A stretch of DNA of 30,000 bases from Endozoicomonas elysicola (GCF_000710775.1 NZ_JOJP01000001.1:295083-325082), one strand, 5' to 3'; shown: positions 1,360-25,171, counted from the stretch's first letter. Translations and numbers: made by a program. Notes: generated from the letters alone by a model not told the origin.

Positions 1360-1390
1360 AACGAAATAAAAGAATAATGAGTTCGTCACT

Positions 1391-5218: not shown

Positions 5219-5253
5219 TTCAAAAGTTTTTTATCTACTGAAGTTACAATAAT

Positions 5254-5280
5254 GCCCATATAGCAGGTGACTATATGGGC
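5254..5280 (-). terminator. Candidate rho-independent terminator ending the cai-fix transcription unit
   Basis: Perfect 10-bp stem GCCCATATAG / CTATATGGGC (5254-5263 and 5271-5280) with a 7-nt loop. It lies 26 bp downstream of the caiE stop. On the minus-strand transcript it is followed by AUUAUUGU, so the U-tract is only moderate. Confidence 0.5.
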
Positions 5281-5305
5281 ACCAAATACGTTGTAACAAG
5301 CTCTA

Positions 5306-5902
5306 TCAGGCTGATATTTTAGGCTTCACGTCAGTGGTACCCATCAGCCGAGGTCGGTTCAACTCCATTTCAACCAATGGCATCACCTCTTTCATGGTTT
5401 TGCCAGAGCGGATGGCCAGGTCCTGATACTCTTTGGTATTCAAACCTTTCCAGTGCATATCCTGATCAGACACCTGACGAACCGGTTTGGCCGGTGAACC
5501 AATCAAAAGCTGTCTTGCTTCACCCTGAAAGCCAGCTTTCACAAAACTCATGGCCGCTACAATGCTCTCTTCCCCGATAACAGCACCGTCCATTACCACC
5601 GAGTTCATGCCAACCAGTGCATTTCGACGGATGACACAACCGTGAAGAATAGCGCCATGGCCGATATGTCCATCACGTTCGACAACCGTGTCCATATCGC
5701 AGTAGCCATGCATTACACAGCCATCCTGAAGGTTGGCACCCTCCTCCAGAATCAAGCGACCATAGTCGCCTCTCAGACTGGCAACAGGGCCAATATAAAC
5801 ACCCGGCCCGACAATCACATCACCAATCAACACCGCGGTTGGATGGACATAGGCAGTAGGGTCTACCACCGGTACCAGTCCTTCAAACTCATAACAGGGC
5901 AT
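5306..5902 (-). CDS. caiE: Carnitine operon protein CaiE (hexapeptide-repeat / gamma-carbonic-anhydrase-like fold)
   Basis: 198 aa. [49 protein letters not shown] ... [17 protein letters not shown] ... NRPRL.GTTDV.PK tracks my recollection of E. coli CaiE nearly residue for residue. An AAGGGAG RBS lies 8 nt upstream of the ATG at 5902. Confidence 0.9.
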
Positions 5903-5919
5903 TTCGATAACTCCCTTAA

Positions 5920-6014
5920 AAAACGCTGCCCGTCACCCGCTGCCCGCTTCCCGTATAAGCGAAGGTTATCCTGGCTTTTACGGACGACGGGCAGCGGGAG
6001 GCGCGTAGCGTTTT
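5920..6014. repeat. Intergenic imperfect-palindromic element, copy A (REP/MITE-like)
   Basis: Lies between the fixX stop and the caiE start. The outer arms are AAAACGCT (5920-5927) / AGCGTTTT (6007-6014). A perfect 11-bp inner stem is CCCGCTGCCCG (5936-5946) / CGGGCAGCGGG (5988-5998). A further CCGTA.AAGC / GCTTTTACGG pairing follows. It shares the CCCGCTGCCCGCTTCCCGTAxAAGC core with copies at 9495-9578 and 22822-22898. Confidence 0.75.
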
Positions 6015-6022
6015 AAAATTAC

Positions 6023-6310
6023 TCAGCCGTAGCGGAACTCAATACCAAAGGTACCCTGTGGGTAGTGCCATTTTTTGATAATGGTGTCACCACAGAGAAT
6101 ACGACAGGTACCACACTCCAGGCAGCCAGCGGAGTCAAAATGGATATTGCCATTTTCGTCACGCTTATAAAGACCAGCAGGGCAGGCAGCTTCCAGCTTG
6201 GCAAATTCTGCCGGATCCGGATTCTCAACCAGTTCGATATGAGGATTGCCTTCATCAACAAAGAATTTGTTAATGCCCAGCTTTACATCAACATTGACCT
6301 TCTCGCTCAT
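6023..6310 (-). CDS. fixX: Ferredoxin-like protein FixX
   Basis: 95 aa. NVDVKLG.NKF.VDE..PHI ... CPAGLYK ... GCLECGTCRI ... P.GTFG.EFRYG matches remembered E. coli FixX. The start overlaps the fixC stop (ATGA at 6307-6310). Confidence 0.9.
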   Translation of the reverse strand: MSEKVNVDVKLGINKFFVDEGNPHIELVENPDPAEFAKLEAACPAGLYKRDENGNIHFDSAGCLECGTCRILCGDTIIKKWHYPQGTFGIEFRYG

Positions 6311-7593
6311 AGCGCAGTCGCTCCCTTGAAGCCATCTTTAATCAGGTTCATGAAACCGGCCTGCTTCAGGTGAGGCATCACAATTTTCCGCAGTGGAGCA
6401 GAAGTGCCGTTCATGGTGTAAAGGTCTTTCATGATGCCGGTCATCATGGTTGGATACTGGTTAAACATTCTTGGGTTATCCAGGAAGCCGGGAACCTTCT
6501 TATAGAGCTGAAGGTCTTTCATCACAAAGCTGTTATCCAGCGTTGTTTTGTAGGAGGCCAGACCCGCTTCACTGAAGTCGCCCGCCTCTTTAGCCTTGAT
6601 GATGGCATTGGCAGCTGCTTCACCGGAGGCAATGGCCAGGTCCATTCCCCGAATGGTAAAGCCAATATTCAGACAGAGACCTGCGGCATCACCGGCAATC
6701 AGAACGCCATCACCCACCATCTTCGGCACCATGTCATAACCACCTTCCGGTACAACGTGGGCAGAATATTCTACGGTCTTACCACCAGCGATCAGCGGCT
6801 TAACGGTTGGATGATTTTTGAAGTCTTCCATCATCTGAGGAATGCTTTTGCTGACCTTGTCAATGTTATGCAGACCAAACACCAGCCCCAGAGAAACGCT
6901 GTCTTCATTGGTGTACAGGAAGCCACCACCCATCTGGCCATCAGAAGGTGAGCCAACAAACAGCCAGGCAGCACCTTCATTATCCATGCAACCAAAACGA
7001 TCATTGATCTGCTGGCGGCTCAGCTCAATGACTTCCTTAACACCCACACCGGTGTTGTGTGCATTTACACCGGTCACCATGCCCAGCTTCTGGCCCAGCA
7101 TGGAGTTCACACCATCGGCAAGAAGCACAACATCGGCTTCCATCTCTTCGCCACCGGCAATAACACCACAGACCTTACCGTCGCGAACAATCAGATCATC
7201 AACATGAACACCCGGAACAATGCTGGCACCTTCAGATTCAGCTTGTTCTGCCAGCCACTGATCAAATTTTGAACGCAGCACAGCATAAGAGCGACTGCCT
7301 GGATCTGCGGCTTCAGGGCTTGCATAGTCAAGCGTCACACTGCTGCTGCCATCCATAAAAGAGACCTTCTCATGGACAATGCAGCGCTCAACAGGAGCTT
7401 CTTCAGCAAAGTTGGGGAAGATTTTCTCGATACTGTGGGCATAAAGGCGACCACCGGTCACATTCTTTGACCCTGGAAAGTTGCCCCGTTCAATAACCAG
7501 TGTTTCCAGACCGGCCTTGGCTAACAGGTACGCACTGATGCAACCGGCAAGTCCTGCCCCGACAATGATTACATCAAATTTATCTTCGGACAT
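6307..7593 (-). CDS. fixC: Electron-transfer-flavoprotein:quinone oxidoreductase-type flavoprotein FixC
   Basis: 428 aa. The N-terminal FAD dinucleotide fold is KFDVIIVGAGLAGC. The length and the position between fixB (plus an insert) and fixX are as in E. coli fixABCX. A GAGGGGA RBS lies upstream of the ATG at 7593. Confidence 0.88.
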   Translation of the reverse strand: MSEDKFDVIIVGAGLAGCISAYLLAKAGLETLVIERGNFPGSKNVTGGRLYAHSIEKIFPNFAEEAPVERCIVHEKVSFMDGSSSVTLDYASPEAADPGSRSYAVLRSKFDQWLAEQAESEGASIVPGVHVDDLIVRDGKVCGVIAGGEEMEADVVLLADGVNSMLGQKLGMVTGVNAHNTGVGVKEVIELSRQQINDRFGCMDNEGAAWLFVGSPSDGQMGGGFLYTNEDSVSLGLVFGLHNIDKVSKSIPQMMEDFKNHPTVKPLIAGGKTVEYSAHVVPEGGYDMVPKMVGDGVLIAGDAAGLCLNIGFTIRGMDLAIASGEAAANAIIKAKEAGDFSEAGLASYKTTLDNSFVMKDLQLYKKVPGFLDNPRMFNQYPTMMTGIMKDLYTMNGTSAPLRKIVMPHLKQAGFMNLIKDGFKGATAL

Positions 7594-7671
7594 GGTGTCC
7601 CCTCACTTCTAACGATATGCACCTGGTAGTGCAATTCCATTTATTGATTAAACTTTTCCGGCCCACGCTGT

Positions 7672-9270
7672 TTATTGGCTTAAAAGAGCGTTATATGGGA
7701 TGGCCCAGTAATAGATAAGAAAGGTGGAAACCAATACCCCGGCAGCCACCATAATCCAGCCGTAGTAGCGACTTCTGACATACTCTGCCGCCACCGTTTC
7801 TGATGCGGGTATCTGGTGAATTTTGTCCTGGTAAGTAATCTCTTCGATGGTCTTGGTCTGGCCTTTTGAGCCCCAGATACCAAGCACGATACTGATGGCT
7901 ACGCCAATAAAGAAAGGATCAAAAAGATTAACCAATGGCACACCGGCCAGCTCTTTAAGCAGCTTAGCGACCATATACCCAAAGAAACCGCCCGCCATGG
8001 CCAGGTAAGCGCCACGTTCTGTCAGCTTCTTACTCCAGACACTGGCAAAAGCAACGTAACCCCAGGATGCCGCGATGATCGTGCTGGCAAACCAGGCAAT
8101 GACACGGATACTGGCCATATCCATACTGGCAATCATCAGTGACAGTAAACTGACCAGCAGCATCATCCCACGGGTGAAGCGCAGTTGTGATTTCTCACTG
8201 GCAAACTTGATATTCAGAATATCGCTGGACAGGCTGAAGCCCACCACCGACAGAAAAGTACATGCTGAAGTAAGACCGGCAGTCAGAATACCCGCGAGCA
8301 GAGCTACACCCACCAGCGGAGGCATTAACTCCATGGCAGCCCAGATCATGACCTTTTCAGGCTGATCCATCGCTGGATTCACAGGAATGACACTGATGGA
8401 CATCAGATAGAGGTAGAGCAGAAAAATTACCGTCAGCAGCGCCATCATCACACTGGAGCGCAGAATCACATGTTCATTTCGCGCCATCAGGTTCCGGCCA
8501 GCCTGCCAGGGGCTGACGGCAACGGTTACCAGCCAGATAATGCCCATGGTGATGCCGTAAAACACCATATCAAACTCGGAGCCACCACGAGGGTTACCGT
8601 GGTAATCCAGCAGTCCCGGTGGCGTTTCTGGATTACGGGCCAGCGTATCAAGCAGATTCTCAAGACCACCTGCGGCTTCAAATACATAAGGCCCGGCAAA
8701 GATCGTGATGCCCAGGAAGAACAGGCACATAACGGTGTCTGTCAATACGCTTCCACGAGCACCGGAATAGAAGGTAAACAGGGTGATGCCGACCCAGGCA
8801 ATCAAAAGACAGGTTATACGACTGTAACCAGTTAATGTTTCCATCAGCAGGCCGGTACCCTGTAGAACACTGATCAGATAAGCGAACAGGGAGGCTACCG
8901 TAATCATGGCAGCCAACCGGCGAATACGAAGGCTGTTAAACCGATTAGAAAAATAGGTAGGCATGGTATTAACCATGGCCCTGCGAATATAGCGACCAAA
9001 AAACAGGCCACCGATCACATACCCTCCGGCACAGAGCGTATTCAGTAAAAGCATGGTGGTAATGTTGCCACCGTAGCTGAAAGCGGTATCCCCCATAAAC
9101 CCATTAGTACTGAGCATGGAGGCAAATAAGGTGCAGGTAATAAATAACGTGGGAGCATTGCGACCGCAGACATAATAATCATCAATGCCTTTAACCTTCA
9201 TTCCGGCGTATGCACCAATCAACACGAATACAACAATGCTGACAAGAACGCCGGCGGCATAAATACTCAT
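7672..9270 (-). CDS. Sodium:solute symporter (SSS) family transporter, substrate unknown
   Basis: 532 aa and almost entirely hydrophobic, with about 13-14 predicted TM segments. The N-terminal region (VFVLIGAYAGMKVKGIDDYYVCGRNAP) resembles the SSS family (PutP/PanF/ActP-like) entry motif. It is embedded between fixB and fixC on the same strand. Confidence 0.7.
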   Translation of the reverse strand: MSIYAAGVLVSIVVFVLIGAYAGMKVKGIDDYYVCGRNAPTLFITCTLFASMLSTNGFMGDTAFSYGGNITTMLLLNTLCAGGYVIGGLFFGRYIRRAMVNTMPTYFSNRFNSLRIRRLAAMITVASLFAYLISVLQGTGLLMETLTGYSRITCLLIAWVGITLFTFYSGARGSVLTDTVMCLFFLGITIFAGPYVFEAAGGLENLLDTLARNPETPPGLLDYHGNPRGGSEFDMVFYGITMGIIWLVTVAVSPWQAGRNLMARNEHVILRSSVMMALLTVIFLLYLYLMSISVIPVNPAMDQPEKVMIWAAMELMPPLVGVALLAGILTAGLTSACTFLSVVGFSLSSDILNIKFASEKSQLRFTRGMMLLVSLLSLMIASMDMASIRVIAWFASTIIAASWGYVAFASVWSKKLTERGAYLAMAGGFFGYMVAKLLKELAGVPLVNLFDPFFIGVAISIVLGIWGSKGQTKTIEEITYQDKIHQIPASETVAAEYVRSRYYGWIMVAAGVLVSTFLIYYWAIPYNALLSQ

Positions 9271-9464
9271 AACCCACTTCCCACAGGTGCGCCCGGTAAT
9301 GCTTCCGGTGCTGTCACAGATGTTTCTTCAATATTGTTACTATCAATGCTTTGCTGATTGTTAGAGTTGTGTCTTTTTTGCTCAAGATATAAGACTCTAT
9401 TCATCAACAGGCCAACACCTGACAGAAAGCTGCCAATAAACAATGAAAAAATGATTTCACCCAT
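9267..9464 (-). CDS. Small single-pass membrane protein translationally coupled to the SSS transporter (hypothetical)
   Basis: 65-aa ORF with one N-terminal TM helix (IIFSLFIGSFLSGVGLLM) and a polar N/Q/S-rich tail. A GGGAGA RBS lies about 9 nt upstream of the ATG at 9464. Its stop overlaps the transporter start (ATGA, 9267-9270). I recognise no family. Confidence 0.5.
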   Translation of the reverse strand: MGEIIFSLFIGSFLSGVGLLMNRVLYLEQKRHNSNNQQSIDSNNIEETSVTAPEALPGAPVGSGL

Positions 9465-9494
9465 GATTGAACGTCTCCCTGCCAGTTATAAGAG

Positions 9495-9578
9495 CGCTTT
9501 CCGCAACCCGCTGGCCGCTTCCCGTAAAAGCATATGTCTTATCTTTTTCGGGGAGCAGGCAGCGGAGACCGGACGGCG
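9495..9578. repeat. Intergenic imperfect-palindromic element, copy B (REP/MITE-like)
   Basis: Lies between the fixB stop and the small ORF start. The sequence is CGCTTTCCGCAACCCGCTGGCCGCTTCCCGTAAAAGCATATGTCTTATCTTTTTCGGGGAGCAGGCAGCGGAGACCGGACGGCG. It is near-identical in its core to copy C. About 19 of 23 positions pair between the arms CCGCTGGCCGCTTCCCGTAAAAG and CTTTTTCGGGGAGCAGGCAGCGG. Confidence 0.75.
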
Positions 9579-9591
9579 AATCAGCTGATGC

Positions 9592-10539
9592 TTATTTCTC
9601 GCCAAACGCAGCAGTCAGTGCTGGCACGATCTTGTAAAGATCGCCAACAATGCCGTAGTCCGCGTATTGGAAGATCGGAGCATTTTTGTCCTTGTTCACT
9701 GCAACAATCACCTGGGCACTGTTGGCAGCAACCATGTGCTGGATCTGTCCGGAAATACCCAGTGCCAGATACAGTTCTGGTTTTGGCATCACACCGGAGA
9801 TACCCACATAACGCTCTTGCTCCAGCCACTTCTCGCTCTCAGCGATTGGACGGGAACAACCCAGCTCAGCATCAATGGCAGCACCCAGGGCTTCAGCCAT
9901 GGCAATGTCTTCTTTCTTGGCAATACCACGGCCGATACTAACGATACGCTTGGCCTTACCCAGGTCTACCTGAGTAGCCTGCTTAGGCTGACGCTCCAGA
10001 CACTTGATGGCTGCTTTTGGTGCAACGAATTCAACGTTGATGGTTTCACCGGTTCTGGCAGCGTCTTCGCTTTCAGGTGCAAATACACCACCACTGACAA
10101 CCATCACGGCAAACGGAGAAGCCACTTTCTCCTGACCGTGGGCGAGACCACCGTAAACCATGCGCTTACCGGTAACACCACCGTCTTCAACGGTCACGTC
10201 ATACGCTTCAGTTACCACACCCGCCTTCAGCTTAACGCCCAGCAGTGAAGCCAGAGCCTTACAGCAGCGAGTGCCTGGCAGCAGAATCAATGCAGAATCG
10301 GCAGCTTCAGAGATGGCCTTGGCCATGGTGTCAGCGTAATCTTCAACAATGCGTGAAGTTTCTCTGGCACCCAGCAGATAAACTTTGTCAGCACCCTGGG
10401 CGTAAGCTTTTGCTACATCACCATCTGTGCCAATAACAAAGGCAGAAACCGTATCACCCAGTTCGCGGGCACCGGCAAGTACTTCTGCCTGACGGGATTC
10501 GACGTCGCTGAAAACCCAAACGTTTGCAATCTTACTCAT
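9592..10539 (-). CDS. fixB: Electron transfer flavoprotein alpha subunit FixB
   Basis: 315 aa. The C-terminal ETF-alpha FAD-binding signature is PELYLALGISGQIQH..G...A..IVAVNKDKNAPIF..ADYGIVGDL. It follows fixA after an 11-bp gap. Confidence 0.9.
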   Translation of the reverse strand: MSKIANVWVFSDVESRQAEVLAGARELGDTVSAFVIGTDGDVAKAYAQGADKVYLLGARETSRIVEDYADTMAKAISEAADSALILLPGTRCCKALASLLGVKLKAGVVTEAYDVTVEDGGVTGKRMVYGGLAHGQEKVASPFAVMVVSGGVFAPESEDAARTGETINVEFVAPKAAIKCLERQPKQATQVDLGKAKRIVSIGRGIAKKEDIAMAEALGAAIDAELGCSRPIAESEKWLEQERYVGISGVMPKPELYLALGISGQIQHMVAANSAQVIVAVNKDKNAPIFQYADYGIVGDLYKIVPALTAAFGEK

Positions 10540-10550
10540 TGGTCAACCTA

Positions 10551-11330
10551 TCAATTCAGAATTTTACGCAGGTGGCTTACCAGCTCAGCGATTTGATCTT
10601 CACCGTCGCCTTCAATCATGACGTTGAGGCGTTCTTTCTGCTTGGGTGCTTTGGTTTCCAGCAATTCAACCGATGCTGCACCCTGCGCCACGCCCAGCGC
10701 TGATGGTGTCATCGTACCTACTGGCTTCTTACCGGCAGCCAGAATGGCCTTCATGCCAGGAATCGCAGGGGTGTTGATGTCTGCAGAAACAGAGATAACG
10801 GCAGGCAGAGTGACTTCCAGCACTTCCACTTCACTTTCCAGTGCACGCTCAACCACCAGTTTGCCGTTGTTCGCGGAAACAATTTTGCTGACGCCGCTCA
10901 GGGTGGCGACATCCAGCAGTGCACCCAGACGGGTACCGACCTGCTGAGCCAGAAGGTCTCCGGAACCGTCACCACACAGGATCAGGTCAAAGCCAATCTC
11001 TCTGGCGGCAGTTGCCATCACTTCGGCCGTCTGCTCTGGAAGCAGATGCGTATAGGCATCATCCATAACCGCAGTCATGGCGTCAGGACCGCGGGACAAG
11101 ATGTCCTTACGGGCCTTGCTGTTTTCCAGTGTCTTGTCACCCACGCTCAGAGCGGTGATGTGGGCTTCACCCACCAGGCCTTTTACTTCAACAGCTGCTT
11201 CAATAGCATTCAGATCAAATGGGCTGATCTTTGGCGTTGCACGGCTAACGTCCAGTGAGCCATCGGCCTGTACAACGATATCCTGCTCTTCAGGTACCAG
11301 TTTGCATCCAACAATAATTTTCATAGTCAT
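10551..11330 (-). CDS. fixA: Electron transfer flavoprotein beta subunit FixA
   Basis: 259 aa. MKIIVGCKLVPEEQDI ... ALSVG ... RKD.LSRGPD ... GFDLILCGDGS.DL.AQQVG ... IEGDGE.QIA is colinear with remembered E. coli FixA. Confidence 0.9.
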   Translation of the reverse strand: MTMKIIVGCKLVPEEQDIVVQADGSLDVSRATPKISPFDLNAIEAAVEVKGLVGEAHITALSVGDKTLENSKARKDILSRGPDAMTAVMDDAYTHLLPEQTAEVMATAAREIGFDLILCGDGSGDLLAQQVGTRLGALLDVATLSGVSKIVSANNGKLVVERALESEVEVLEVTLPAVISVSADINTPAIPGMKAILAAGKKPVGTMTPSALGVAQGAASVELLETKAPKQKERLNVMIEGDGEDQIAELVSHLRKILN

Positions 11331-11418
11331 TCAGCTTTCTACCTAAACTGCCCGGAGCACTCTGCCCCGGACATACTTCAAAACGACCTCTGCTCACCGG
11401 AACAGAGGGTATGCATCT

Positions 11419-12270
11419 TTATTTCCACTCAGCGAGGGCGTAATTCAGATATGCGATTTCTGGATCGTTGGCATCAATCACACGGAAGTGGATGGAGTTG
11501 TCATCCCACTTCCACATCTGGGTCTTGATGGTGCAGCCTGGGTACAGAGACTTGGTAATCCGAGTCTTGAAGCGGGTCAGGCGCTCAGGCTCACCAGGCA
11601 ACAGCGTGTTGATGATGTGACGGCAGGCAAAACCGGCAGTACTTACTGCATGCAGGTTTGGCTTGGGATGGTCAAACTTCTGGGCATATTCCCAGTCAAT
11701 GTGCTGAGGATGGTAGTCACCATTCAAACGGTAAATGATGGCCTGGTTCAGAGGCACCTGTTCCACAACTTCAAAGTCAGGCTCTCTCTCAGGAATCTCA
11801 ACAATATCCGCTGGTGCTTTTGGACCACCGAAGCCACCGTCGTACAGACAGCAATCCCAGCTTTCATTGGTAAACAGCAGGGTGCCATCTTCATCAAAGG
11901 TCTCGCCAATATGCTGAGCCAGACAGCCACGACCTGGACCACGGTCATAAAGACCTTTCAGTAATACTTTGGTGCTGAGTTTGCCAGACAGCTTGGTCAG
12001 CGGCTGATGGAACTGAAGATCAAAGCCCCAGTGGAGGGAACCACCCCACTCAAAACCAAAGTCGATGGTTTTGGTGACTTCGCTGTCCACAATCGGCATG
12101 GCAGCAAACATCGGCAGAATTTTCTGATTCTTTTCGTAAACGTACTCAAGATCAGTCTTGCCATCGGCACCGGCACCACAGCCCAGGCCAAAGATAATCA
12201 GTTCACGGAAGTCATATTCCCGTTCAAAAGGGCCGTATGTTTTGCCCTGCATATCCAGTTTTAAAGCCAT
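11419..12270 (-). CDS. Double-hot-dog (R)-specific enoyl-CoA hydratase-2 / MaoC-like protein, catalytic motif intact
   Basis: 283 aa. It is colinear with the hydratase-2 domain of eukaryotic MFE-2 as I remember it. Shared blocks are GGFGG, LNQA.IYRL.GD..P.HID (here YRLNGDYHPQHID, D185/H190), KP.LH...T.GF..R, and R.K.R....YPG.T..T.MWK....IHF. Codon 185 is GAC at 11716-11718. Confidence 0.8.
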   Translation of the reverse strand: MALKLDMQGKTYGPFEREYDFRELIIFGLGCGAGADGKTDLEYVYEKNQKILPMFAAMPIVDSEVTKTIDFGFEWGGSLHWGFDLQFHQPLTKLSGKLSTKVLLKGLYDRGPGRGCLAQHIGETFDEDGTLLFTNESWDCCLYDGGFGGPKAPADIVEIPEREPDFEVVEQVPLNQAIIYRLNGDYHPQHIDWEYAQKFDHPKPNLHAVSTAGFACRHIINTLLPGEPERLTRFKTRITKSLYPGCTIKTQMWKWDDNSIHFRVIDANDPEIAYLNYALAEWK

Positions 12271-12311
12271 CGTCGTACTCCTGACGAAATTAATTTTTCA
12301 GTCGTTCGCCT

Positions 12312-13163
12312 TTATTGCCACTCAGCCAAGGCAAAATTCAAAAGAATGGTTTCAGGATTGTTGGCATCGACTACACGGAAGCGAACGGACTGGTCAGGCA
12401 TTTCCCAGACCTGAGTGCGCACATCCATTCCCGGATAGCTGACGCCGGTAAAACGAAGTTTGAAACGCTTCATGCGTTCGGGACGACGTCCCATAAACTG
12501 ATTAGTGATGTGTCTGAATGCCAGACCCGCCAGACCGAGGCCCATATAGAAAGGCTTTTCGTAACCAAACTCCTTGGCATATTCCCAGTCAGCGTGCAGG
12601 TGGTGATAGATACCAATCAGACGGAAAACCAGGGCACTGTTCAGGTTCAGGTGGTCATCAAATTCAAAGTCAGGGGCACGATCCGGCATCTCCACGATGT
12701 CCTGTGGTGCTTTAGGCCCACCAAAACCACCGTCGTATAGACAGATATCCCAGTTATCGATGGTCAGCAGTTTGTTGCCATCCTCATCGAAGGTTTCTCC
12801 GGTTTTCTGTGCCAGGCAGCCTCGGCCTTCACCTCGATCGTACAGACCGGTCAGAGTAATATTGGTGGTCAGCTTGCCTGCCTTTTTGACAAAGGGGTGA
12901 TGGAATTTCATATCAATCCCCCAGTGCAGAACACCATCCCAGTTAAAACCGAAATTAATATCCTCGGTTACTTTGTCGGACGCATCGATAGTCGCCAGAA
13001 AGACAGGGTTTACCTTGAGGTCTTTTTCAAATGCCCAGTCCAGGTCGGTTTTACCATCCTGAGCGGCACCACTGCCCACCCCGAAAGCCAGCAGATCATT
13101 CAGGTCATACTGAGTTTCATAGGGTCCATATACCTTACCTACCAGATCTGTATTAATCGTCAT
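12312..13163 (-). CDS. Double-hot-dog MaoC/hydratase-2-like paralogue with degenerate catalytic motif
   Basis: 283 aa. It aligns gaplessly with the downstream paralogue at about 50% identity by eye (25 of the first 50 residues). The hydratase-2 motif position reads FRLIGIYHHLHAD. The catalytic Asp is replaced by Ile185 (ATC at 12609-12611), and the following P.LH block reads PFYMG. Confidence 0.78.
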   Translation of the reverse strand: MTINTDLVGKVYGPYETQYDLNDLLAFGVGSGAAQDGKTDLDWAFEKDLKVNPVFLATIDASDKVTEDINFGFNWDGVLHWGIDMKFHHPFVKKAGKLTTNITLTGLYDRGEGRGCLAQKTGETFDEDGNKLLTIDNWDICLYDGGFGGPKAPQDIVEMPDRAPDFEFDDHLNLNSALVFRLIGIYHHLHADWEYAKEFGYEKPFYMGLGLAGLAFRHITNQFMGRRPERMKRFKLRFTGVSYPGMDVRTQVWEMPDQSVRFRVVDANNPETILLNFALAEWQ

Positions 13164-13279
13164 GGTTTTGCTTCCGCGTCTATCGATATGTTTGTTTTTT
13201 ATTCATCACATGCTGATGACAATCAGCATGCACACCATTCATCAAAAACCCGCATCAGACTTGTTCAACACATTCACTC

Positions 13280-14932
13280 TTAATTCAGTACGGTATCCAC
13301 CCTGATTTCAGCTGTGTGATTCCGGTTAATCAGATAATTCTCAACTTGCTGGAATTCAGATCTGGAAAGCACTTCTTCTTTCAATACATTTTTCTGTACT
13401 TTTCCTGTACAGGTTCTTGGAAACTCTGTTCTGAATTCCACATGGGCTGGCACTTTAAAAGCCGCCATATGGGTTGAACAGAATTCAAGAATTTCTTCAG
13501 TGCTTAATGTTTCACCTTCTTTAAGAATGACAAACGCGTTAACCACTTCGTCATACATTTCATCTGGAATACCGATAACGGCGGCTTCAATAATTTTGGG
13601 ATGGCAGACCAGTGCATTTTCAATTTCAGAGCTGGAAATATTTTCGCCGGAGCGCTTAATCAAATTGACATTACGGTCAACAAAATAGAAATAGCCGTCT
13701 TCATCCATGTAGCCGCTATCACCGGTATAAAGCCAACCATGACTGTCCAGTGCTTTTGCTGTTGCTTCCGGGTTGTTGTAATACTCTTTAAACAGCGTTT
13801 TTCCTGGTTCACCCTTGATGACAATTTCACCGGTGGTATTTGGTGTTGCTTCGTTACCCTGATCATCGACAATTTTGATTTCGTAGCAGAATCCGGGTCT
13901 GCCAATGGATGGCCAGCGACGCTCATAGCCGGGGGTATCACCCAGATTGCCAACGATGGTTTCGGTCATGCCATAAGACGTCAGCAGCCGTACACCAAAG
14001 CGCTCTGAAAACTGATCTTTTTCCAGCTCAGAAAGTGTCAGATAAAACATAACCTCCCGCAGACAGTGGCCCTTCTCCCAGGCTCTCTCTGGCTGCAGCA
14101 TGAGGGTGCGAATCATCAGCGGAATACATTCGGTCACGGTTGCCCGGTAATGGCAGATCTGACTCCAGAAGCGAGATGCACTGTACTTCTCTATCAGGAT
14201 CAGCGTGGCGCCTGAGGCAAACGTTGGCATCGCTGCAGTACATTGAAAATCAATGTGGCAGGCTGGCATGGTGCTCAGGTACCGGTCTTCTGAACGCAGA
14301 GAGCATAACCAGGAGGTATATATTCCGGAAAAGTTAAGGTTGTAGTGCGTAATCACCACACCTTTTGGTCGAGACGTTGTGCCCGACGTAAAAATAATCT
14401 CTACTGGATCACTGCTGTCTAAAGGAACTGTTTTTTCAAGTGTTGTTGATTGCTTTCTTAACAGGGCACCAAAATTCAAAGTACCAGCAGGTTCTTCATC
14501 TTCTTCAATTCGTGTGATCAGGATGTGCTCAAGAGGAATGCCATCCTTCTGGCTGATTTCCTGATAAAGAGAAACAAACTGCTTCTCAACAATGACCGTT
14601 TCTACCTGGCATTTCTTCAGAATATAGCTGGCTTCGTGGTGCAGGGACTGCACATTAATCGGAACGGTAATGGCTCCAATTTTCGCCAGACCAAACCAAC
14701 TCATTAAAAATTCAGGGCTGTTGAATAACTGGGTAGCAACCCGGTCACCCTTTTTAACGCCCAGTTTCAGAAAGAGGTTTGCAGCCTGATTTATCTGATG
14801 ATTAAACTCAGCGTATGAAAGTTCACTGGTTTTACCTGATACATCTTCAAAGACAATGGCTGTATTTTCAGCATACGCTTGAGCCAGCCGATCCCATGTA
14901 TCACGTAAATTTTTATTGCCAACCAAGTCCAA
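13280..14932 (-). CDS. caiC: Crotonobetaine/carnitine-CoA ligase CaiC (ANL adenylating enzyme)
   Basis: 550 aa. FTSGTTSRPKGVVITHYNL, YRATVTECIP.MIRTLM.QP, GVRLLTSYGMTETIVG and GW..TGD.GY.DE.G.FYFVDR match remembered E. coli CaiC. A TTG start at 14932 is supported by the N-terminal alignment MDLVGNKNLR vs MDIIGGQHLR and by a GAGGTG RBS. The protein carries a C-terminal tail of about 30 aa that the remembered E. coli protein lacks. Confidence 0.88.
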   Translation of the reverse strand: MDLVGNKNLRDTWDRLAQAYAENTAIVFEDVSGKTSELSYAEFNHQINQAANLFLKLGVKKGDRVATQLFNSPEFLMSWFGLAKIGAITVPINVQSLHHEASYILKKCQVETVIVEKQFVSLYQEISQKDGIPLEHILITRIEEDEEPAGTLNFGALLRKQSTTLEKTVPLDSSDPVEIIFTSGTTSRPKGVVITHYNLNFSGIYTSWLCSLRSEDRYLSTMPACHIDFQCTAAMPTFASGATLILIEKYSASRFWSQICHYRATVTECIPLMIRTLMLQPERAWEKGHCLREVMFYLTLSELEKDQFSERFGVRLLTSYGMTETIVGNLGDTPGYERRWPSIGRPGFCYEIKIVDDQGNEATPNTTGEIVIKGEPGKTLFKEYYNNPEATAKALDSHGWLYTGDSGYMDEDGYFYFVDRNVNLIKRSGENISSSEIENALVCHPKIIEAAVIGIPDEMYDEVVNAFVILKEGETLSTEEILEFCSTHMAAFKVPAHVEFRTEFPRTCTGKVQKNVLKEEVLSRSEFQQVENYLINRNHTAEIRVDTVLN

Positions 14933-15111
14933 TGTAACACCTCATCGCTGAGCAATTCGCCTGCAAACCCCGGTTATTTATTCAAGGCATTCGGGTAGCT
15001 GCCGGAAAATCAGACGGTCTTTTCCGACAGTTCACCAAAATGCGCTCTTGCCCAGTTCACTCTTTCAAGTTCGGCTTTTAAAAAGCCAGCCAATAATCAA
15101 ACGTTCGTCGT

Positions 15112-16329
15112 TTAATCAGCCAGCTTGACGGCACCGACTTCTGCCAGAGCATGGATCTCCTGATCCGAGTATCCGAGATCACTCAGAATACTTGCGGTGT
15201 CCATACCCCGTGATGGTGTGCTCCGCCAGATCTGTCCTGGGTTTTTGGTAAATTTAGGAACAATGTTTGAACCCTTGCACTTACCACCAGACAGCGTGTC
15301 CCACTCAACAATGTTTTCGCGGGCGATGTACTGTGGGTGGCTTTCCAGTTCAGGAATGGTCAGCACACGGGTCGCAGCGATGGTCATGGACTCCAGCAGC
15401 TCCAGCGTTTCATCGATGGTTTTCTCACCGAAGAATGCATCCAGCTTGTCTTCCAGAATCTGCCCCTGAGAACTATCAGCACGAATACCAGGAATACCTT
15501 CAGGAAACTCGTCAGTGCCCAGAATGTGGGTATGATCCAGAACCTCAAGCAACCTTCGGATCTGTGGACCACCTACCCAGGACATGGTGATACAGCCGTC
15601 ATTACAGCGATAAACGCCACAACCTACCTGAGTTGGATCCTTACCTTTGGTTGTGCGGGGATAGAGCGTGCCGTTATTGAAGTAGTCGATCATGTAATAG
15701 TGGCTGACTCGCAGCAGAGCCTCATACATGGCAACGTCAACACTTTCACCTTCCCCGGTTCTTTTAGCATTGTGAAGTGCCGCCAGGGCGGAACTCAGCA
15801 CCATGAAGCCGCTGATGTAGTCACCAGAGTATGGGAATGCAGGTACTGGCTGATCACCATCACCGTTCTGAACCAGGTAACCACTGAATGCCTGGGCAAT
15901 GTGGTCATAAGAAGGCAGGTTGATGTACTGATCTTCACCGTACTGGCCATAACCTGATAGATGCACAATAACCAGCGACTTGTTGTGTTCCCACAGCAGT
16001 TCATCGGTCATACCACGGCGTTTGAAGGCTGGTCCTTTACTGGACTCGATAAAGATATCGGTGGTTTCCATCAGCTTGAGGAATGCTTTCTTGCCTTCCT
16101 CAGAGAAGATATCGATGGACAGACTGTGCAGATTACGGCGCGCCAGCTCGCGGTAATTTTTCATTACCCGGATGGTATCGGGATATTTGGTGTGCTCGAT
16201 CCAGATAACTTCTGCACCCCATTCCGCCATCATCTGGGCTGGAAATGGGCCAGCAATTTCAAGCGCTGAAAAAACAACCCGGACCCCGTGCAAAGGGCCA
16301 AATTCCGGTGTAGACACCTTGTTGGACAT
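15112..16329 (-). CDS. caiB: L-carnitine/gamma-butyrobetainyl-CoA:CoA transferase CaiB (family III CoA-transferase)
   Basis: 405 aa. FGPL.G.RVVFS..EIAGPF..QM.AEWGAEVIWIE, FLKLMETTDIFIE.SKGPAF.RRG and VPELES.PQY.ARE.I..W....G...KG.NI.PKF..NPGQIWR..PS.GMDTA.IL are essentially colinear with remembered E. coli CaiB. Confidence 0.92.
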   Translation of the reverse strand: MSNKVSTPEFGPLHGVRVVFSALEIAGPFPAQMMAEWGAEVIWIEHTKYPDTIRVMKNYRELARRNLHSLSIDIFSEEGKKAFLKLMETTDIFIESSKGPAFKRRGMTDELLWEHNKSLVIVHLSGYGQYGEDQYINLPSYDHIAQAFSGYLVQNGDGDQPVPAFPYSGDYISGFMVLSSALAALHNAKRTGEGESVDVAMYEALLRVSHYYMIDYFNNGTLYPRTTKGKDPTQVGCGVYRCNDGCITMSWVGGPQIRRLLEVLDHTHILGTDEFPEGIPGIRADSSQGQILEDKLDAFFGEKTIDETLELLESMTIAATRVLTIPELESHPQYIARENIVEWDTLSGGKCKGSNIVPKFTKNPGQIWRSTPSRGMDTASILSDLGYSDQEIHALAEVGAVKLAD

Positions 16330-16417
16330 TATTCATTCCCCCGCTAAGCAATATATTCACCTTCAGAAAGGTAACCCCGCAGGGTCAGCCCTTTCCAAAG
16401 GTTCAGTTAACGACAGA

Positions 16418-17554
16418 TTAACGATACTTTTTCAGTACCTGGCGACCGAGAGTCAGAATCTGCATTTCGTCAGATCCACCGGAAACACGGTCAACCCGCA
16501 GGTCACGCCAGAAACGTCCAACGCGATGTCCAGTGATACCGATACCGCCCAGTACCTGCATGGCAGAGTCCACTACTTCGAAGGCAGCATTGGCACAGAA
16601 GTATTTACACATGGCAGCGTCACCGGAGTTCACAGTGCCGTTGTCGCACTTCCATGCAGTTTCATAAACCATGTTCTTCATGGCGTTCAGTTTGATCGCC
16701 ATGTGAGCAAATTTTTCCTGGATCAGCTGAGTACGACCGATGGCTTCACCAAACTGGATACGCTGGTTTGCATACTTGGCAGCGTCTTCAAAGGCGCACA
16801 GGGCAACACCGTAGTTGGTGCAGGCTACCAGGAAGCGTTCAGCATCAAACTCTTCCTTAACACGGTTGAAGCCGTTGCCTTCAGAGCCAAACATGTCCTT
16901 CTCTTCCAGCTCAACGTTATCGAAAATCACTTCGCAGCAGCTGTCCATGCGCAGACCGATCTTGTCCAGTGGGTTCAGCTTGATGCCAGCCTTGCTCATA
17001 TCCACGAACCACTCGGAGAAGACCGGTGAGTCTGGAGAAGCAGAGTCGCGGGCCATCACCACCAGGTAAGGACAGTGGGAGCTACTGGTGATAAAGCACT
17101 TGTGACCGTTCAGGTAAACTTTGCCATCCTTGCGGGTGTAAGTGGTTTTCAGACTACCTACGTCAGAACCGGCACTTGGCTCAGTAATGGCGGAGTTCCA
17201 CATTTGTTCGCCAGTGCCGCGCAGAGCAAAAATCTTGTCGATCTGTTCCTGGGTACCATGACGCAGCATGGTATTGAAACCAGGCAGCTGATACAGAACG
17301 TAGGTAGGCGCACCGTGACGCCCAAGCTCTTCCCAGATAGCGGTCAGAGTAACCAGACCAGCATCCATACCGTCGTGTTCTTCTGGCAGCAGCATTGTGT
17401 CGATGCCCAGTTCAGCCAGAGCCTTCACCCAGCGCAGTGGGTATTCGTGCTTTTCGTCACATTCAACGAAGTAGGCTTCCCAGTTCTCTCTTTCCATCAG
17501 TTCGCGGACACCCGCAACAAACAGTTCCTGCTCGTCAGATAAATTAAAATCCAT
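16418..17554 (-). CDS. caiA: Crotonobetainyl-CoA reductase CaiA (acyl-CoA dehydrogenase family)
   Basis: 378 aa. [60 protein letters not shown] and [63 protein letters not shown] are a very close match to remembered E. coli CaiA. Confidence 0.93.
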
Positions 17555-17604
17555 GTCTAATACTCTTCTTACTTAATTGACTATTGCTTCACTGAAAAAC
17601 GGAT

Positions 17605-19119
17605 TTACCAGCGATTCTTTTTGGCATCTTTCAGGAATGCCCAGATAACCAGAATATTTACGATGGCCAGTGGCGCGCCCCCTGCGATGATTGCTGTCTG
17701 CAGAGGCTTCAGGCCACCCAGAGCAAGCAGGGTAATACCCAGAATCCCCACCAGTAGAGACCAGCCAAGTCGAATCCACAGTGGTGGTTCGTCGTAACCA
17801 GTCGCTTCCTTACAGGTAGACATGGCCAGGGTGTAAGAACAGGCGTTTACCAAGGTGATCGTGGCCAGGAAACAGAGCACCAGGAAGACACCGATGGTGA
17901 AGGTGCTGAGTGGCAATGTTGCCCAGATTTCGATAATGGCCCGTGGTACATCGTTCTCACTGATGATGGTGCTGATATCCAGCAGTCCCTTGTGCATAAC
18001 CTCAACGGTATAGCTGCCGAGGATGCCCCAGAGTGTCCATGTGGTCAGAGTCAGACCGCCCACCATGCCCAGACAGAGTTCACGTACCGTTCTGCCCTTG
18101 GAGATACGGGCAAGGAAGATGCACATCTGGATGCCGTAAATCATCCACCAGGCCCAGTAGAAGACGGTCCAGTTCTGAGGAAAACCACTCTCACCGATGG
18201 CATCGGTATAGAACAGCATCCTGCCGGCATTCATCAGGAGAACACCAAAGGAGTCGGTGAAGTAATTCAGAATAAAGGTGGTACCACCAACGATCAGAAC
18301 CCAGGCAAGCACAAAGATACTCAGGTAGCTTCTCAGGTCACTGGCGATACGAATGCCTTTCTGAAGACCGAAGGCCACACAGATCGCGTTGAAAACAATA
18401 AGGAAAGAGATAATGGTCGCATCAACTTCCAGGCTACGCTCAATACCAAAAAGATACTCGATACACTCAGTAACCAGTGGTGTCGCCAGACCAAGACTGG
18501 TACCCATCGCCAGAATCAGCGCAACGATGTACAGGTTATCTACGAAGGTTCCAAAAAGGCCGTTACTGTGCTTTTCACCCACCAATGGTTCAATGGTCTT
18601 ACTGGGGCGAATAACATTGACCTTTTTCACATACAGGAAGTAGCCAAAAGCAACACTTAACAGACTGTAGGTTGCCCAGGGTAAAGGTCCCCAGTGGAAG
18701 AGAGAGTAGGCAACACCGTATTCTTTTGCCTGTTGAGAGAAAGGTTCGATACCGAATGGAGGCGTGAGGATATAGTAATAAACTTCAATCGTACCCCAGA
18801 AAAGTACGGCTGCCGACGTACACGAGGCAAACATCATGAAGATCCAGCTGGCAGTACTGAATTCAGGCTCTTCATCACCCAGCTTTTTATTGGCATAAGG
18901 ACCAAAGAGCAGCCAGAAATAGCCGCCCAGCATGATGACCATATACCACTCAAATGCCCAGGCCCATTTGTAGGTCACATATTGAAAGACCTGATTAATC
19001 ACCTGATTAGCGGCATCCAGGTCCCGAACCGTGAAATAAATCAATATGGCAACAATAGCTAACGAAGGTATTGCTATCTTCGTATCTATTCTTATTGCCT
19101 TTTTTGGTTCAGCATCCAT
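17605..19119 (-). CDS. caiT: L-carnitine/gamma-butyrobetaine antiporter CaiT (BCCT family)
   Basis: 504 aa. [74 protein letters not shown] and [28 protein letters not shown] match remembered E. coli CaiT throughout. An AGGGGGA RBS lies about 7 nt before the ATG at 19119. Confidence 0.93.
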
Positions 19120-19900
19120 TCAAACTTCCCCCTATTAAAAGCCTTGAATAACATACTAAAAAGCTAATCTGATTTTTGGGTGTTCAATCTTTTTTCTATA
19201 AATAAATGTTTTCAACGATGGATCAATTGAATACTCAAAAACAGACTCTGAAACAGAAAATGAATAATCTGGAATAAAAATTAATTCAGAATTTTACGAA
19301 TAACTCATCATGAAGAAGACCAGATCTTAAGGTCGCATAGCAGGACAACTGGTCTTTAAATGATCAACAACACATCATAGTAATAAATGTAACTTCTCCC
19401 ATTCATCTTAACCAGGAGATAAAAAATAAGCGCTTCTATGAAGGCAGGCAGAATATAATATACTCACTATTTCCATAATTTGATTTGAAGCAATTATTGG
19501 ATGAATAGTTTTTTCCTTTATCTTTCATTTACTATTCATAAACTTAAAGAGTTTTGAGTATTTTTTAAGCAACACAAAGCGTACGTCACTATTTATTAAA
19601 AAACAGATTAAATATTATTCAGGACAAATATTAATCTACTGATCATCAATTGATCACTGGCCAAAAAAAGCACTAATAAAACAGTCAAACTTATTAACCT
19701 AGATCAATTTCTCAATCATCAACGATAAAATACACCCCAATAGTTTGATGAGAATCATTTATTAACAATCAAAAGCTATTCGACGTGAAAAATACTTATT
19801 TTCCAGAAATAAAATAACATTCCTTATAAAAGTATTGCCGACGATACTCTATCTCTTTTTAACAACCCGATTCTCATTACTAAAATTCACTTTTTAGAAA
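19120..19900 (-). promoter_or_regulatory. Long AT-rich ORF-free upstream region of the cai-fix cluster (promoter/regulatory region, position of promoter not resolved)
   Basis: About 780 bp at roughly 30% GC by eye, against about 50% in the flanks. No ORF of 60 aa or more occurs on either strand. It lies directly upstream of caiT. It contains FNR/CRP-family-like half-matches (TTGATTTGAAGCAA at 19480-19493, TTGATGAGAATCAT at 19745-19758) and three GATCAATT motifs (about 19221, 19648, 19702). Confidence 0.5.
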
Positions 19901-19935
19901 AGCCTTTATAAAAATGACTCGTTTTTATAAAGGCT
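19901..19935 (-). terminator. Candidate rho-independent terminator of the RpiR-family regulator gene
   Basis: Perfect 14-bp inverted repeat AGCCTTTATAAAAA (19901-19914) / TTTTTATAAAGGCT (19922-19935) with the 7-nt loop TGACTCG. It lies 58 nt downstream of the regulator stop. On the minus-strand transcript it is followed by UUUCU. The stem is AT-rich, so stability is moderate. Confidence 0.5.
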
Positions 19936-19993
19936 ATTTGTGACAGGATTCTCATATTGAATTTCTGTATCCAGAAAGATACATAATCAAAAA

Positions 19994-20848: not shown

Positions 20849-21011
20849 TGACTTGTACTTGGTAATGGATCAAATGTGGATTCAGCCCTGCATATGCTTG
20901 GTAAAGAGCAGCAAAAACAATCCCTGACTCAATCCATCACCTATTTATACTCTCTTCTTTATTTAGACGGTCGCCACGGCAACCGTATTATATACACACT
21001 TGTGTATAAAA

Positions 21012-21854: not shown

Positions 21855-21939
21855 GGTCTTTCCACCTGAATAATGAGAGTGGGAAGTACTGCAGGCTACC
21901 TTACCCCCTACTGCAGTACCCCCAAATTGTCACAGCCAT

Positions 21940-22785: not shown

Positions 22786-22821
22786 GTTTAACTCTTTCCC
22801 GGAGTGGTTTTTTAAGCCTTC

Positions 22822-22898
22822 CGCTTCCCGCTGCCCGCTCCCCGTAAAAGCATTTGTCTTGTCTTTTTCGGGTGGCAGGTAGCGGACGGCGGGAAGCG
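22822..22898. repeat. Intergenic imperfect-palindromic element, copy C (REP/MITE-like)
   Basis: Lies between the iolC stop (22901) and the iolB start (22785). The sequence is CGCTTCCCGCTGCCCGCTCCCCGTAAAAGCATTTGTCTTGTCTTTTTCGGGTGGCAGGTAGCGGACGGCGGGAAGCG. The outer 10-bp perfect stem is CGCTTCCCGC (22822-22831) / GCGGGAAGCG (22889-22898). The core is nearly identical to copy B. Confidence 0.8.
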
Positions 22899-22900
22899 TC

Positions 22901-25056: not shown

Positions 25057-25171
25057 GGTCTTACTCTCAAATGGTCTTAAAAATGTTTTGAATTAATTTT
25101 TTTCTGGTTCGGGCAGGCTTCCCCACCTGCCCGTTATCCATAACGTATTGATTCAGCTTTCTATTGGGTGA

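Follow-up and report, generated by a model that had tools for sequence, protein, structure and literature searches.

A CaiD-less cai/fix cluster with MaoC-family proteins in Endozoicomonas elysicola and its recombined caiB-caiC-MaoC1 cassette

The window analysed here, a stretch of 30,000 nucleotides from the genome of Endozoicomonas elysicola (NZ_JOJP01000001.1:295083-325082), carries at positions 5306-19119 a cluster of genes related to the cai and fix genes of E. coli carnitine metabolism, in which two hot-dog proteins, MaoC1 and MaoC2, occupy the position that the crotonase CaiD takes in E. coli. We lean towards the reading that MaoC2 is a carnitinyl-CoA dehydratase and hence a non-orthologous replacement of CaiD in an anaerobic carnitine-reduction cluster, because of its operon position, its complementary distribution with CaiD in a survey of related loci, the cluster layout in Enterobacillus and the phenotype of Propionibacterium freudenreichii. 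The MaoC-type cai/fix architecture is widespread, has been noted once in the literature and is biochemically uncharacterised. What looks new in the window is MaoC1, which is devoid of the catalytic Asp and is found with a distinct clade of CaiB in a recombined cassette.

The MaoC-type cai/fix cluster and its distribution

The 13 consecutive open reading frames (ORFs) of the cluster all lie on the minus strand in the order caiT, caiA, caiB, caiC, MaoC1, MaoC2, fixA, fixB, small ORF, sodium:solute symporter (SSS) family transporter, fixC, fixX and caiE, with spacers of -4 to 179 bp, and may be co-transcribed (Table 1). This agrees with a preliminary description made from the sequence alone, which had listed a co-directional block in the same order with gaps of -4 to about 180 bp, and its reading of the block as a cai/fix-type pathway cluster on one strand is supported by both family models and strand. 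Scores above the NCBIfam cut-offs are reached by CaiT, CaiA, CaiB, CaiC and CaiE on equivalog models and by FixA and FixC on subfamily models; the best NCBIfam matches of FixB and FixX are the models of the same name, with scores under the cut-off. Residues 1-518 of CaiC align to positions 1-518 of its model and are followed by a C-terminal extension of ~30 aa. Identity to the E. coli K-12 proteins ranges from 56 to 81%, and judged by sequence the Cai and Fix proteins of the window are orthologues of the E. coli ones, for which the earlier wording of very close to the enterobacterial proteins is an overstatement.

Neither CaiD nor CaiF can be detected in the window, as had been described. For CaiD, tblastn matches have E values of at least 8, and a profile hidden Markov model built from 16 CaiD sequences reaches a best E of 1.6 against the 237 six-frame segments of the window; for CaiF, the best E is 0.13 with tblastn and 0.96 with phmmer against the same 237 segments. 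A scan with the Pfam ECH family matches none of the genes in the annotated layout of the window. The cluster shares with the caiTABCDE/fixABCX/caiF system of E. coli its orthologue-grade CaiT, CaiA, CaiB, CaiC, CaiE, FixA and FixC, the best matches of FixB and FixX, the order caiT-A-B-C and a presumed chemistry at the CoA level. It differs in being without CaiD and CaiF, in adding two MaoC genes, the SSS transporter and the small ORF, in the relocation of caiE to the far end, and in carrying cai and fix genes on one strand, the fix genes embedded between MaoC2 and caiE, where E. coli has two divergent operons with a common control region. The possibility that the cluster is an E. coli variant was rejected, as a megablast search of E. 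coli genomes with the whole cluster gave no match.

MaoC2 carries the hydratase-2 signature in the form G-D-Y-H-P-Q-H, with Asp185 and His190 kept. A profile of the MaoC2 family matches the human MFE-2 hydratase 2 (PDB 1S9C) at E = 1e-42 with the G-D-x-N-P-x-H motif aligned, the Asp and His of MaoC2 falling on the catalytic dyad motif of human MFE-2, and an AlphaFold2 model of MaoC2 (pLDDT 73) has a TM-score of 0.77 to 1S9C. MaoC2 scores above the Pfam cut-offs of both PF01575 and PF22622, and MaoC1 above the first and below the second (Table 1). The likeness to MFE-2 hydratase 2 (1S9C, 1PN2) and other double hot-dog MaoC hydratases lies in the two-hot-dog fold and, for MaoC2, in the Asp and His of the motif. 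The differences are an identity of ~28%, a His in place of Asn and the residues D-W-E-Y after the motif His in the MaoC2 family, the missing Asp of MaoC1, and the cai gene context of MaoC2, which implies a quaternary-ammonium substrate.

For the survey, one genome per GTDB species was scanned; relatives of MaoC2 were found at 159 sites, and the best 80 of the 159 loci were annotated by tblastn with the window proteins and with E. coli CaiD and CaiF. The MaoC2 homologues of these 80 loci are 59-100% identical to MaoC2, all keep G-D-x-H-P-Q-H, and each lies within a cai/fix cluster. The gene upstream of MaoC2 is caiC in 62 loci, caiD in 15 and MaoC1 in one, and two loci begin at a contig end. 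Both caiA and caiB are present in 73 of the 80 and fixA in 69; the fix genes are co-directional with MaoC2 in 58 of the 71 loci having fix matches; no caiD lies within 10 kb in 65; and CaiF is present in none of the 80, nor was it matched in any of the loci designated L001-L087. The 80 loci come from Endozoicomonas, Desulfovibrionaceae, Geopsychrobacteraceae, Shewanella, Ferrimonas, Campylobacterales and Sutterella and from many Bacillota and Actinomycetes. As the one-strand layout without CaiD and CaiF predominates, it represents a common form of this cluster type and no oddity of Endozoicomonas, and the window fits it with caiC-MaoC1-MaoC2-fixA, caiA, caiB, fixABCX and no caiD. The preliminary description had taken the locus for a rearranged and newly equipped form of the enterobacterial pathway, a view that does not survive the finding that Desulfovibrionales, Campylobacterales, Sutterella, Bacillota and many Actinomycetes also have clusters with MaoC genes, most of them co-directional. 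One member of the Enterobacterales, Enterobacillus tribolii, shows cai and fix genes divergent as in E. coli (fixXCBA<>caiTABC-MaoC2) and carries MaoC2 exactly at the place of caiD. A single plasmid, from Curtobacterium, carries a MaoC2 homologue, and the family is thus not plasmid-spread.

A cluster of this type has been reported from P. freudenreichii, in which caiABC and fixABCX occur without caiD or caiT and an "enoyl-CoA hydratase" was proposed to fill the caiD gap; in yoghurt, carnitine and acylcarnitines are depleted by strains whose cluster is intact, and carnitine accumulates with a strain in which fixABC is split off (Scoary2, Genome Biol 2024, PMC11007987). The caiABC and fixABCX genes of propionibacteria are also listed elsewhere (PMC7650540). 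The P. freudenreichii locus (L090) encodes on one strand an MFS transporter, an alpha/beta-hydrolase, caiA, caiB, caiC, MaoC2, a further MFS transporter, a metallo-beta-lactamase-fold gene and fixABCX. Its hydratase (P0230) is 59% identical to MaoC2 of the window and has the same G-D-Y-H-P-Q-H motif, which places the published "enoyl-CoA hydratase" in the MaoC2 family, and the earlier remark that no description of the architecture was known must accordingly be given up. The two clusters have in common the one-strand caiABC, the MaoC-family hydratase, fixABCX and the lack of caiD. That of P. freudenreichii differs in having no CaiT, CaiE, SSS transporter or MaoC1, in a CaiB of another clade, and in its two MFS transporters, alpha/beta-hydrolase and metallo-beta-lactamase-fold gene. 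Its phenotype alone ties a MaoC-type cluster to carnitine in vivo. Full-text searches for literature joining MaoC or hot-dog proteins with crotonobetainyl-CoA, caiD or carnitine gave nothing relevant, the Endozoicomonas papers name carnitine for BCCT transporters or DddD alone, and the "CAI module" of a Psychrobacter plasmid consists of caiA and caiB alone.

Table 1. Features of the cai/fix cluster of the window. Scores are given in bits against the cut-off of the model; identities are to E. coli K-12 (locus L007).
Feature	Position	Strand	Description	Family model	Identity
spacer upstream of caiT	19120..19993	-	874 bp, ~30% GC; presumed promoter and control region		
caiT	17605..19119	-	504 aa; BCCT-family L-carnitine/gamma-butyrobetaine antiporter (predicted)	NF002887, 835.7 vs 541; Pfam BCCT	70%
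caiA	16418..17554	-	378 aa; crotonobetainyl-CoA reductase (predicted)	NF002885, 738.5 vs 540	81%
caiB-caiC-MaoC1 cassette	12275..16420	-	4.1 kb, swapped; recombination breakpoints at both ends		
caiB	15112..16329	-	405 aa; carnitine CoA-transferase (predicted), "CaiB2" clade; 5' end of swapped cassette	NF002914, 599.8 vs 413	59%
caiC	13280..14932	-	550 aa; carnitine/crotonobetaine-CoA ligase (predicted), TTG start	NF005947, 848.3 vs 651	56%
MaoC1	12312..13163	-	283 aa; double hot-dog hydratase-2-like, without catalytic Asp	MaoC_dehydratas (PF01575), 40.5 vs 27; PF22622, 22.3 vs 27	
MaoC2	11419..12270	-	283 aa; double hot-dog hydratase-2 family, Asp185/His190	MaoC_dehydratas (PF01575), 46.9 vs 27; MFE-2_hydrat-2_N (PF22622), 34.9 vs 27	
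fixA	10551..11330	-	259 aa; electron-transfer flavoprotein (ETF) beta-type subunit	NF002888, 359.1 vs 219	56%
fixB	9592..10539	-	315 aa; ETF alpha-type subunit	NF002889, 401 vs 549; Pfam ETF and ETF_alpha	56%
small ORF	9267..9464	-	65 aa; single transmembrane helix, likely accessory subunit of SSS transporter	no Pfam match	
SSS transporter	7672..9270	-	532 aa; sodium:solute symporter family	Pfam SSF, 101	
fixC	6307..7593	-	428 aa; ETF-quinone-oxidoreductase-like flavoprotein	NF007542, 622.6 vs 610	60%
fixX	6023..6310	-	95 aa; ferredoxin-like	NF011993, 132.9 vs 166	58%
caiE	5306..5902	-	198 aa; hexapeptide-repeat protein of carnitine operon	NF010150, 388 vs 305	76%
hairpin 3' of caiE	5251..5283	-	13-bp stem, 7-nt loop, -27.1 kcal/mol, z = -4.4, no U-rich tail		

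The recombined caiB-caiC-MaoC1 cassette

MaoC1 is 54% identical to MaoC2 and has the motif G-I-Y-H-H-L-H, in which Ile replaces the catalytic Asp and the His is kept. Besides Endozoicomonas, its relatives are found solely in Ferrimonas and two Campylobacterales, with Asn or Cys at the Asp position, and MaoC1-type sequences make up four clusters among 5.8 billion proteins. The ratio of nonsynonymous to synonymous substitution rates (dN/dS) of MaoC1 against its relatives in Tara metagenome contigs is 0.034, which indicates strong purifying selection and rules out a decaying duplicate. MaoC2 is encoded nearby in each genome that carries MaoC1. The two hot-dog genes, which the preliminary description lists together, are not equivalent, differing in motif state, CaiB clade and cassette membership.

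The catalytic Asp169 of CaiB is conserved throughout. In a neighbour-joining tree the CaiB of the window groups with the CaiB copies that adjoin MaoC1-type genes (CaiB2), apart from the E. cretensis and E. atrinae proteins. Extra CaiB copies lie directly upstream of the MaoC1-type genes of Ferrimonas (L005) and of the two Campylobacterales (L043/L091 and L055/L092), and adjacency of CaiB2 and MaoC1 recurs in four lineages. This recurrent pairing points to a co-inherited module that replaced the resident CaiB in the window and was added alongside it elsewhere.

Of the loci compared, the closest to that of the window, at ~97% nucleotide identity, is on a complete-chromosome metagenome-assembled genome of Endozoicomonas (L009, NZ_OZ239981.1), and four Tara contigs (L001-L004) carry the 13 genes in identical order, with ~83% identity over caiT-fixB and ~75% over SSS-fixX. 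E. cretensis (L008) and E. atrinae WP70 (L010) match at ~96-97% from caiE to MaoC2 and at ~92% from caiA upstream, and not between. In sliding-window comparison with these two, identity is mostly 85-100% outside positions 12275-16420, while inside them the sequences are ~55-77% identical or unalignable, with breakpoints at ~16420, the end of caiA, and at ~12275, just upstream of MaoC2. In E. cretensis and E. atrinae, caiB and caiC form an ordinary pair and MaoC1 is absent; caiB-caiC-MaoC1 is present in the window, L009 and the Tara contigs. Synonymous divergence (dS) from the Tara relatives (L001/L003) is 0.43-0.63 for caiB, caiC and MaoC1, 0.84 for caiA and 1.3-1.7 for MaoC2, fixB, fixC and fixX. 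From this unevenness, parts of the cluster differ in their history within Endozoicomonas, and the lower dS of the cassette is consistent with its more recent exchange. Because close Endozoicomonas relatives differ in that segment alone, the MaoC1/CaiB2 cassette constitutes a natural experiment. The other variant features of the window, next to MaoC1 and its distinct CaiB cassette, are the SSS transporter with its mini-protein and the retained caiT and caiE.

In L009 the cluster bears two insertions (5398-6790 and 7470-9070), each with an overlapping flank of ~8 bp, namely a 1.39-kb element inside caiC that encodes a 426-aa ORF without Pfam match and a 1.6-kb element with an IS66-family transposase in the caiC-MaoC1 spacer. 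The cluster in L009 is probably inactivated by them, and they recall the transposase-driven decay reported for P. freudenreichii. Ferrimonas kyonanensis has two adjacent carnitine-type sets (KE384364.1, ~82.8-119.7 kb; L005/L006 and L017), the first being caiE-MaoC2-caiD-caiCBAT divergent from fixABCX. The second follows directly with an MFS transporter, CaiB2, MaoC1, a second BCCT transporter, an ABC-F protein and a second CaiA, an arrangement which suggests that the pathway was duplicated to serve a second substrate.

Proposed pathway and competing readings

In E. coli, the part that FixAB plays in reducing carnitine is established, as is the reaction scheme of CaiA, CaiB, CaiC and CaiD (summarised in PMC11007987). 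By orthology with E. coli, the cluster of the window would form gamma-butyrobetaine from carnitine or crotonobetaine by reduction at the CoA level, and all enzymatic assignments as well as the substrate are predictions. CaiT would swap carnitine for gamma-butyrobetaine, CaiC would make the first betainyl-CoA and so prime the cycle, and CaiB would transfer CoA from the product to the incoming substrate. MaoC2 would then use Asp185 and His190 to dehydrate carnitinyl-CoA to crotonobetainyl-CoA in place of the crotonase CaiD, and CaiA would reduce crotonobetainyl-CoA with electrons from FixABCX. The SSS transporter and its partner with a single transmembrane helix could import substrate or a cofactor precursor. 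As MaoC1 is without the Asp, yet under purifying selection and always found with the distinct CaiB clade, it may be a specificity-determining partner or a second enzyme feeding a related substrate into the same pathway.

Several points weigh against MaoC2 as the dehydratase of L-carnitinyl-CoA, the first of them stereochemical. As a rule, hydratase-2 enzymes (MFE-2/PhaJ) form or consume hydroxyacyl groups of D-(3R) configuration. L-carnitine is (R) by the Cahn-Ingold-Prelog rules and is spatially of the L-(3S) type, since CH2N outranks CH2COO; by this reasoning alone, D-(3R) would correspond spatially to D-carnitine and not to L-carnitine. Given the mismatch, an L-carnitinyl-CoA dehydratase with the hydratase-2 fold would need an inverted binding mode. 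We know of no enzymology for any member of the MaoC2 family, and the carnitine evidence from P. freudenreichii is an association with no hydratase knockout. The CaiD searches covered the window and the 20-kb loci, and a crotonase elsewhere in the Endozoicomonas genome is possible; a database search with E. coli CaiD was filled by matches at least 81% identical (best 120). Lastly, in 15 of the 80 loci, all from Shewanella or Ferrimonas, a CaiD 83-89% identical to that of E. coli lies directly upstream of an intact MaoC2, in the order caiTABC-caiD-MaoC2-caiE with fixAB divergent. In view of this coexistence the two are not simply interchangeable there, and CaiD and MaoC2 may be functionally non-identical. 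These clusters resemble that of the window in having a MaoC2 of the same family (73-77%) directly downstream in the cai operon, and differ in keeping CaiD and a divergent E. coli-like layout, neither of which the window has.

The distribution of CaiD bears on how this two-enzyme state arose. Every named match among the best 120 of the CaiD search is from Enterobacterales, Shewanella or Ferrimonas; that no Endozoicomonas is named among them is weak evidence that CaiD is absent there. CaiD is unusually conserved, the 120 matches being clusters at 90% identity, and the CaiC proteins of Shewanella and Ferrimonas, from the same operons as CaiD, are just 53-64% identical to E. coli CaiC. This conservation of CaiD against the divergence of CaiC suggests that caiD has spread horizontally in recent times. 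Those CaiB proteins that come from caiD-bearing clusters form one tight clade in the CaiB tree, nested among those of MaoC2-only clusters. The E. coli layout with CaiD looks like a minority, derived form, and on the simplest reading CaiD is a recent and narrowly distributed addition that displaced MaoC2 in most Enterobacterales, with the two-enzyme state seen in Shewanella and Ferrimonas.

Among the alternatives, the one that fares best concerns MaoC1, which could possibly, though this is doubtful, be a non-catalytic subunit that joins MaoC2 in a hetero-oligomer and adjusts its substrate binding, in the manner of the inert HadA or HadC with HadB in mycobacteria. The loss of the Asp with retention of the His in all MaoC1 copies, the purifying selection and the constant presence of MaoC2 in the neighbourhood would fit such a role. 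However, MaoC1 and MaoC2 are each already a double hot-dog with a non-catalytic N-terminal half of its own, MaoC1 adjoins CaiB2 and not MaoC2 in three of the four lineages, and the Ferrimonas MaoC1 belongs to a cluster of its own next to that of MaoC2. The likeness to HadAB and HadBC is that a motif-bearing hot-dog protein is encoded beside a paralogue without the catalytic residue, and the difference is that Had subunits are single hot-dogs acting on acyl-ACP, whereas the MaoC1-MaoC2 pairing is known from genes alone.

A rather unlikely second alternative, which takes up the stereochemical objection, is that MaoC2 acts on the opposite enantiomer, interconverting D-carnitinyl-CoA and crotonobetainyl-CoA, or on another enoyl-betainyl-CoA, and that L-carnitine is dehydrated by a crotonase encoded elsewhere. 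MaoC2 and the crotonase would then amount to an epimerase or racemase, as peroxisomal hydratase 1 and hydratase 2 do for 3-hydroxyacyl-CoA. The usual D-(3R) specificity of the fold and motif and the 15 Shewanella and Ferrimonas loci with both proteins speak for it. It is weakened by the point that D-carnitine is not known as an abundant natural substrate. Against it also stand the 65 loci from several phyla with no caiD nearby, the Enterobacillus MaoC2 in the caiD slot, and P. freudenreichii, which has no caiD homologue and yet depletes carnitine (PMC11007987).

The least probable alternative, that the window version with CaiB2, CaiC and MaoC1 has been retargeted from carnitine to another hydroxy-betaine or a sulfonium acid of marine hosts, with MaoC1 and CaiB2 as the entry module and CaiA and FixABCX reducing the resulting enoyl-CoA, could explain why the swap hits exactly the three proteins handling substrate before or at dehydration while caiT, caiA and fix stay at ~85-100% to E. 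cretensis and E. atrinae, why CaiB2 is a separate clade and why CaiB2-MaoC1 in Ferrimonas comes with separate MFS and BCCT transporters and a second CaiA, but CaiB scores 600 bits on the carnitine CoA-transferase equivalog model (cut-off 413), CaiT and CaiA are orthologue-grade, MaoC2 is kept beside MaoC1, and no result points to a candidate substrate.

Elements of these readings can be joined in a composite that we hold only tentatively and with low confidence. In anaerobic carnitine respiration the hot-dog hydratase, and not the crotonase CaiD, would be the carnitinyl-CoA dehydratase that came first and is the most widespread; it would either have a stereochemistry inverted for its fold or make the D-isomer and, in those loci that have both, form a carnitinyl-CoA epimerase with CaiD. 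In addition, CaiB2-MaoC1, here with caiC, would be a horizontally exchanged cassette whose Asp-less hydratase homologue admits to the pathway either a second betaine derived from the host or the opposite enantiomer of carnitine.

If MaoC2 is the dehydratase, the cluster would offer a clean case of non-orthologous enzyme displacement and a stereochemical puzzle for the hot-dog fold, and would suggest that Endozoicomonas can respire host carnitine in low-oxygen host tissue. Gamma-butyrobetaine from bacterial carnitine reduction is a precursor of gut trimethylamine and trimethylamine N-oxide, and MaoC-type clusters bear on how its producers are detected. They occur in human- or animal-associated Actinomyces, Schaalia, Trueperella, Varibaculum, Sutterella, Bacillus and Propionibacterium as well as in animal symbionts such as Endozoicomonas, and those of actinomycetes have no CaiT homologue within 10 kb besides having no CaiD. 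Current marker sets for carnitine reduction are built on caiTABCDE including CaiD, e.g., the gammaBMGC database (PMC11857547), and since MaoC-type clusters are without CaiD, screens that depend on it are expected to miss them.

Transporter, accessory genes, control region and flanks

The SSS transporter falls under every NCBIfam cut-off, the nearest specific model being PanF (79.9 bits vs 328). The stop of the small ORF overlaps its start by 4 bp, and in Endozoicomonas, Desulfovibrionaceae and Campylobacterales each homologous SSS gene is immediately preceded by the code for a conserved N-terminal hydrophobic helix of the form MGEI[IL]FS.FIG...; in Desulfovibrionaceae the SSS gene likewise lies between fixB and fixC. 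In Campylobacterales it adjoins panD, panB and a GTP cyclohydrolase II (riboflavin) gene (L091, 12727-13110 and 15034-15600; L092, 16151-16534 and 17206-18015), which hints that the supply of CoA and FAD precursors is bundled with the pathway in these clusters. From this neighbourhood the transporter may import substrate or a cofactor precursor such as pantothenate, and could be of a pantothenate type rather than a carnitine importer.

An Abhydrolase_3 (BD-FAE) alpha/beta-hydrolase is encoded near MaoC-type cai clusters in the Tara contigs (L001-L004, 2585-3595), P. freudenreichii (L090, 5229-5813) and Campylobacterales (L091, 14056-15021), and is absent from the window. The P. freudenreichii gene has been statistically tied to acylcarnitine depletion, for which reason the protein may be an acylcarnitine esterase.

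The hairpin after caiE, which the preliminary description had called the only convincing terminator-like one, is present and is not among the calls of a terminator scan; it is not the only one, as stronger folds lie inside the cluster. The strongest, at -59.7 kcal/mol (z = -5.7), is that of the fixX-caiE spacer, after which comes U6, and further strong folds occur in the caiA-caiB (z = -4.9) and MaoC2-fixA (z = -3.6) spacers. With such folds between its genes, the cluster may be read as one transcript or as several. A GC-rich palindromic REP-like repeat of ~90 nt is present in three intergenic copies, in the fixX-caiE (5919-6014), fixB-small ORF (9490-9566) and iolC-iolB (22810-22886) spacers, and Rfam gave nothing at gathering thresholds, the repeat included. 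The Tara spacers corresponding to the two copies within the cluster are shorter (13 vs 120 bp and 61 vs 127 bp) and without the repeat, which makes the REP-like repeats look like lineage-specific insertions. The two internal hairpins formed by the repeat were accordingly rejected as terminators, mobile palindromes being likelier than a conserved signal.

In the spacer upstream of caiT, as in the rest of the window, FNR- and CRP-like sites are no commoner than in shuffled sequence. At 19898-19938 it contains a hairpin resembling a terminator of the upstream RpiR gene (19994-20848). This gene was rejected as a cai regulator, as it is part of the neighbouring myo-inositol cluster and has a separate hairpin at its end; another gene is found upstream of the cluster in the Tara relatives. 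The myo-inositol catabolism cluster (19994-28040, minus strand, and 28506-29936, plus strand) encodes the RpiR-type regulator, a class II aldolase, IolB, IolC, a Gfo/Idh/MocA dehydrogenase, an IolD-like thiamine pyrophosphate enzyme and an IolE-like TIM-barrel protein, along with a divergent MFS sugar transporter. Since a REP copy falls within its first 45 codons, iolB probably starts further downstream than the listed GTG at 22938.

Neither this flank nor the other is related to the cai/fix genes. On the other side of the cluster, a promoter-like match (5270-5299) overlaps the caiE hairpin. A YieH-like HAD phosphatase is encoded directly downstream of caiE on the same strand as the cluster (4562-5218, minus), followed outwards by an RND efflux pair on the plus strand that comprises a membrane-fusion protein and a 1042-aa permease (178-4519).

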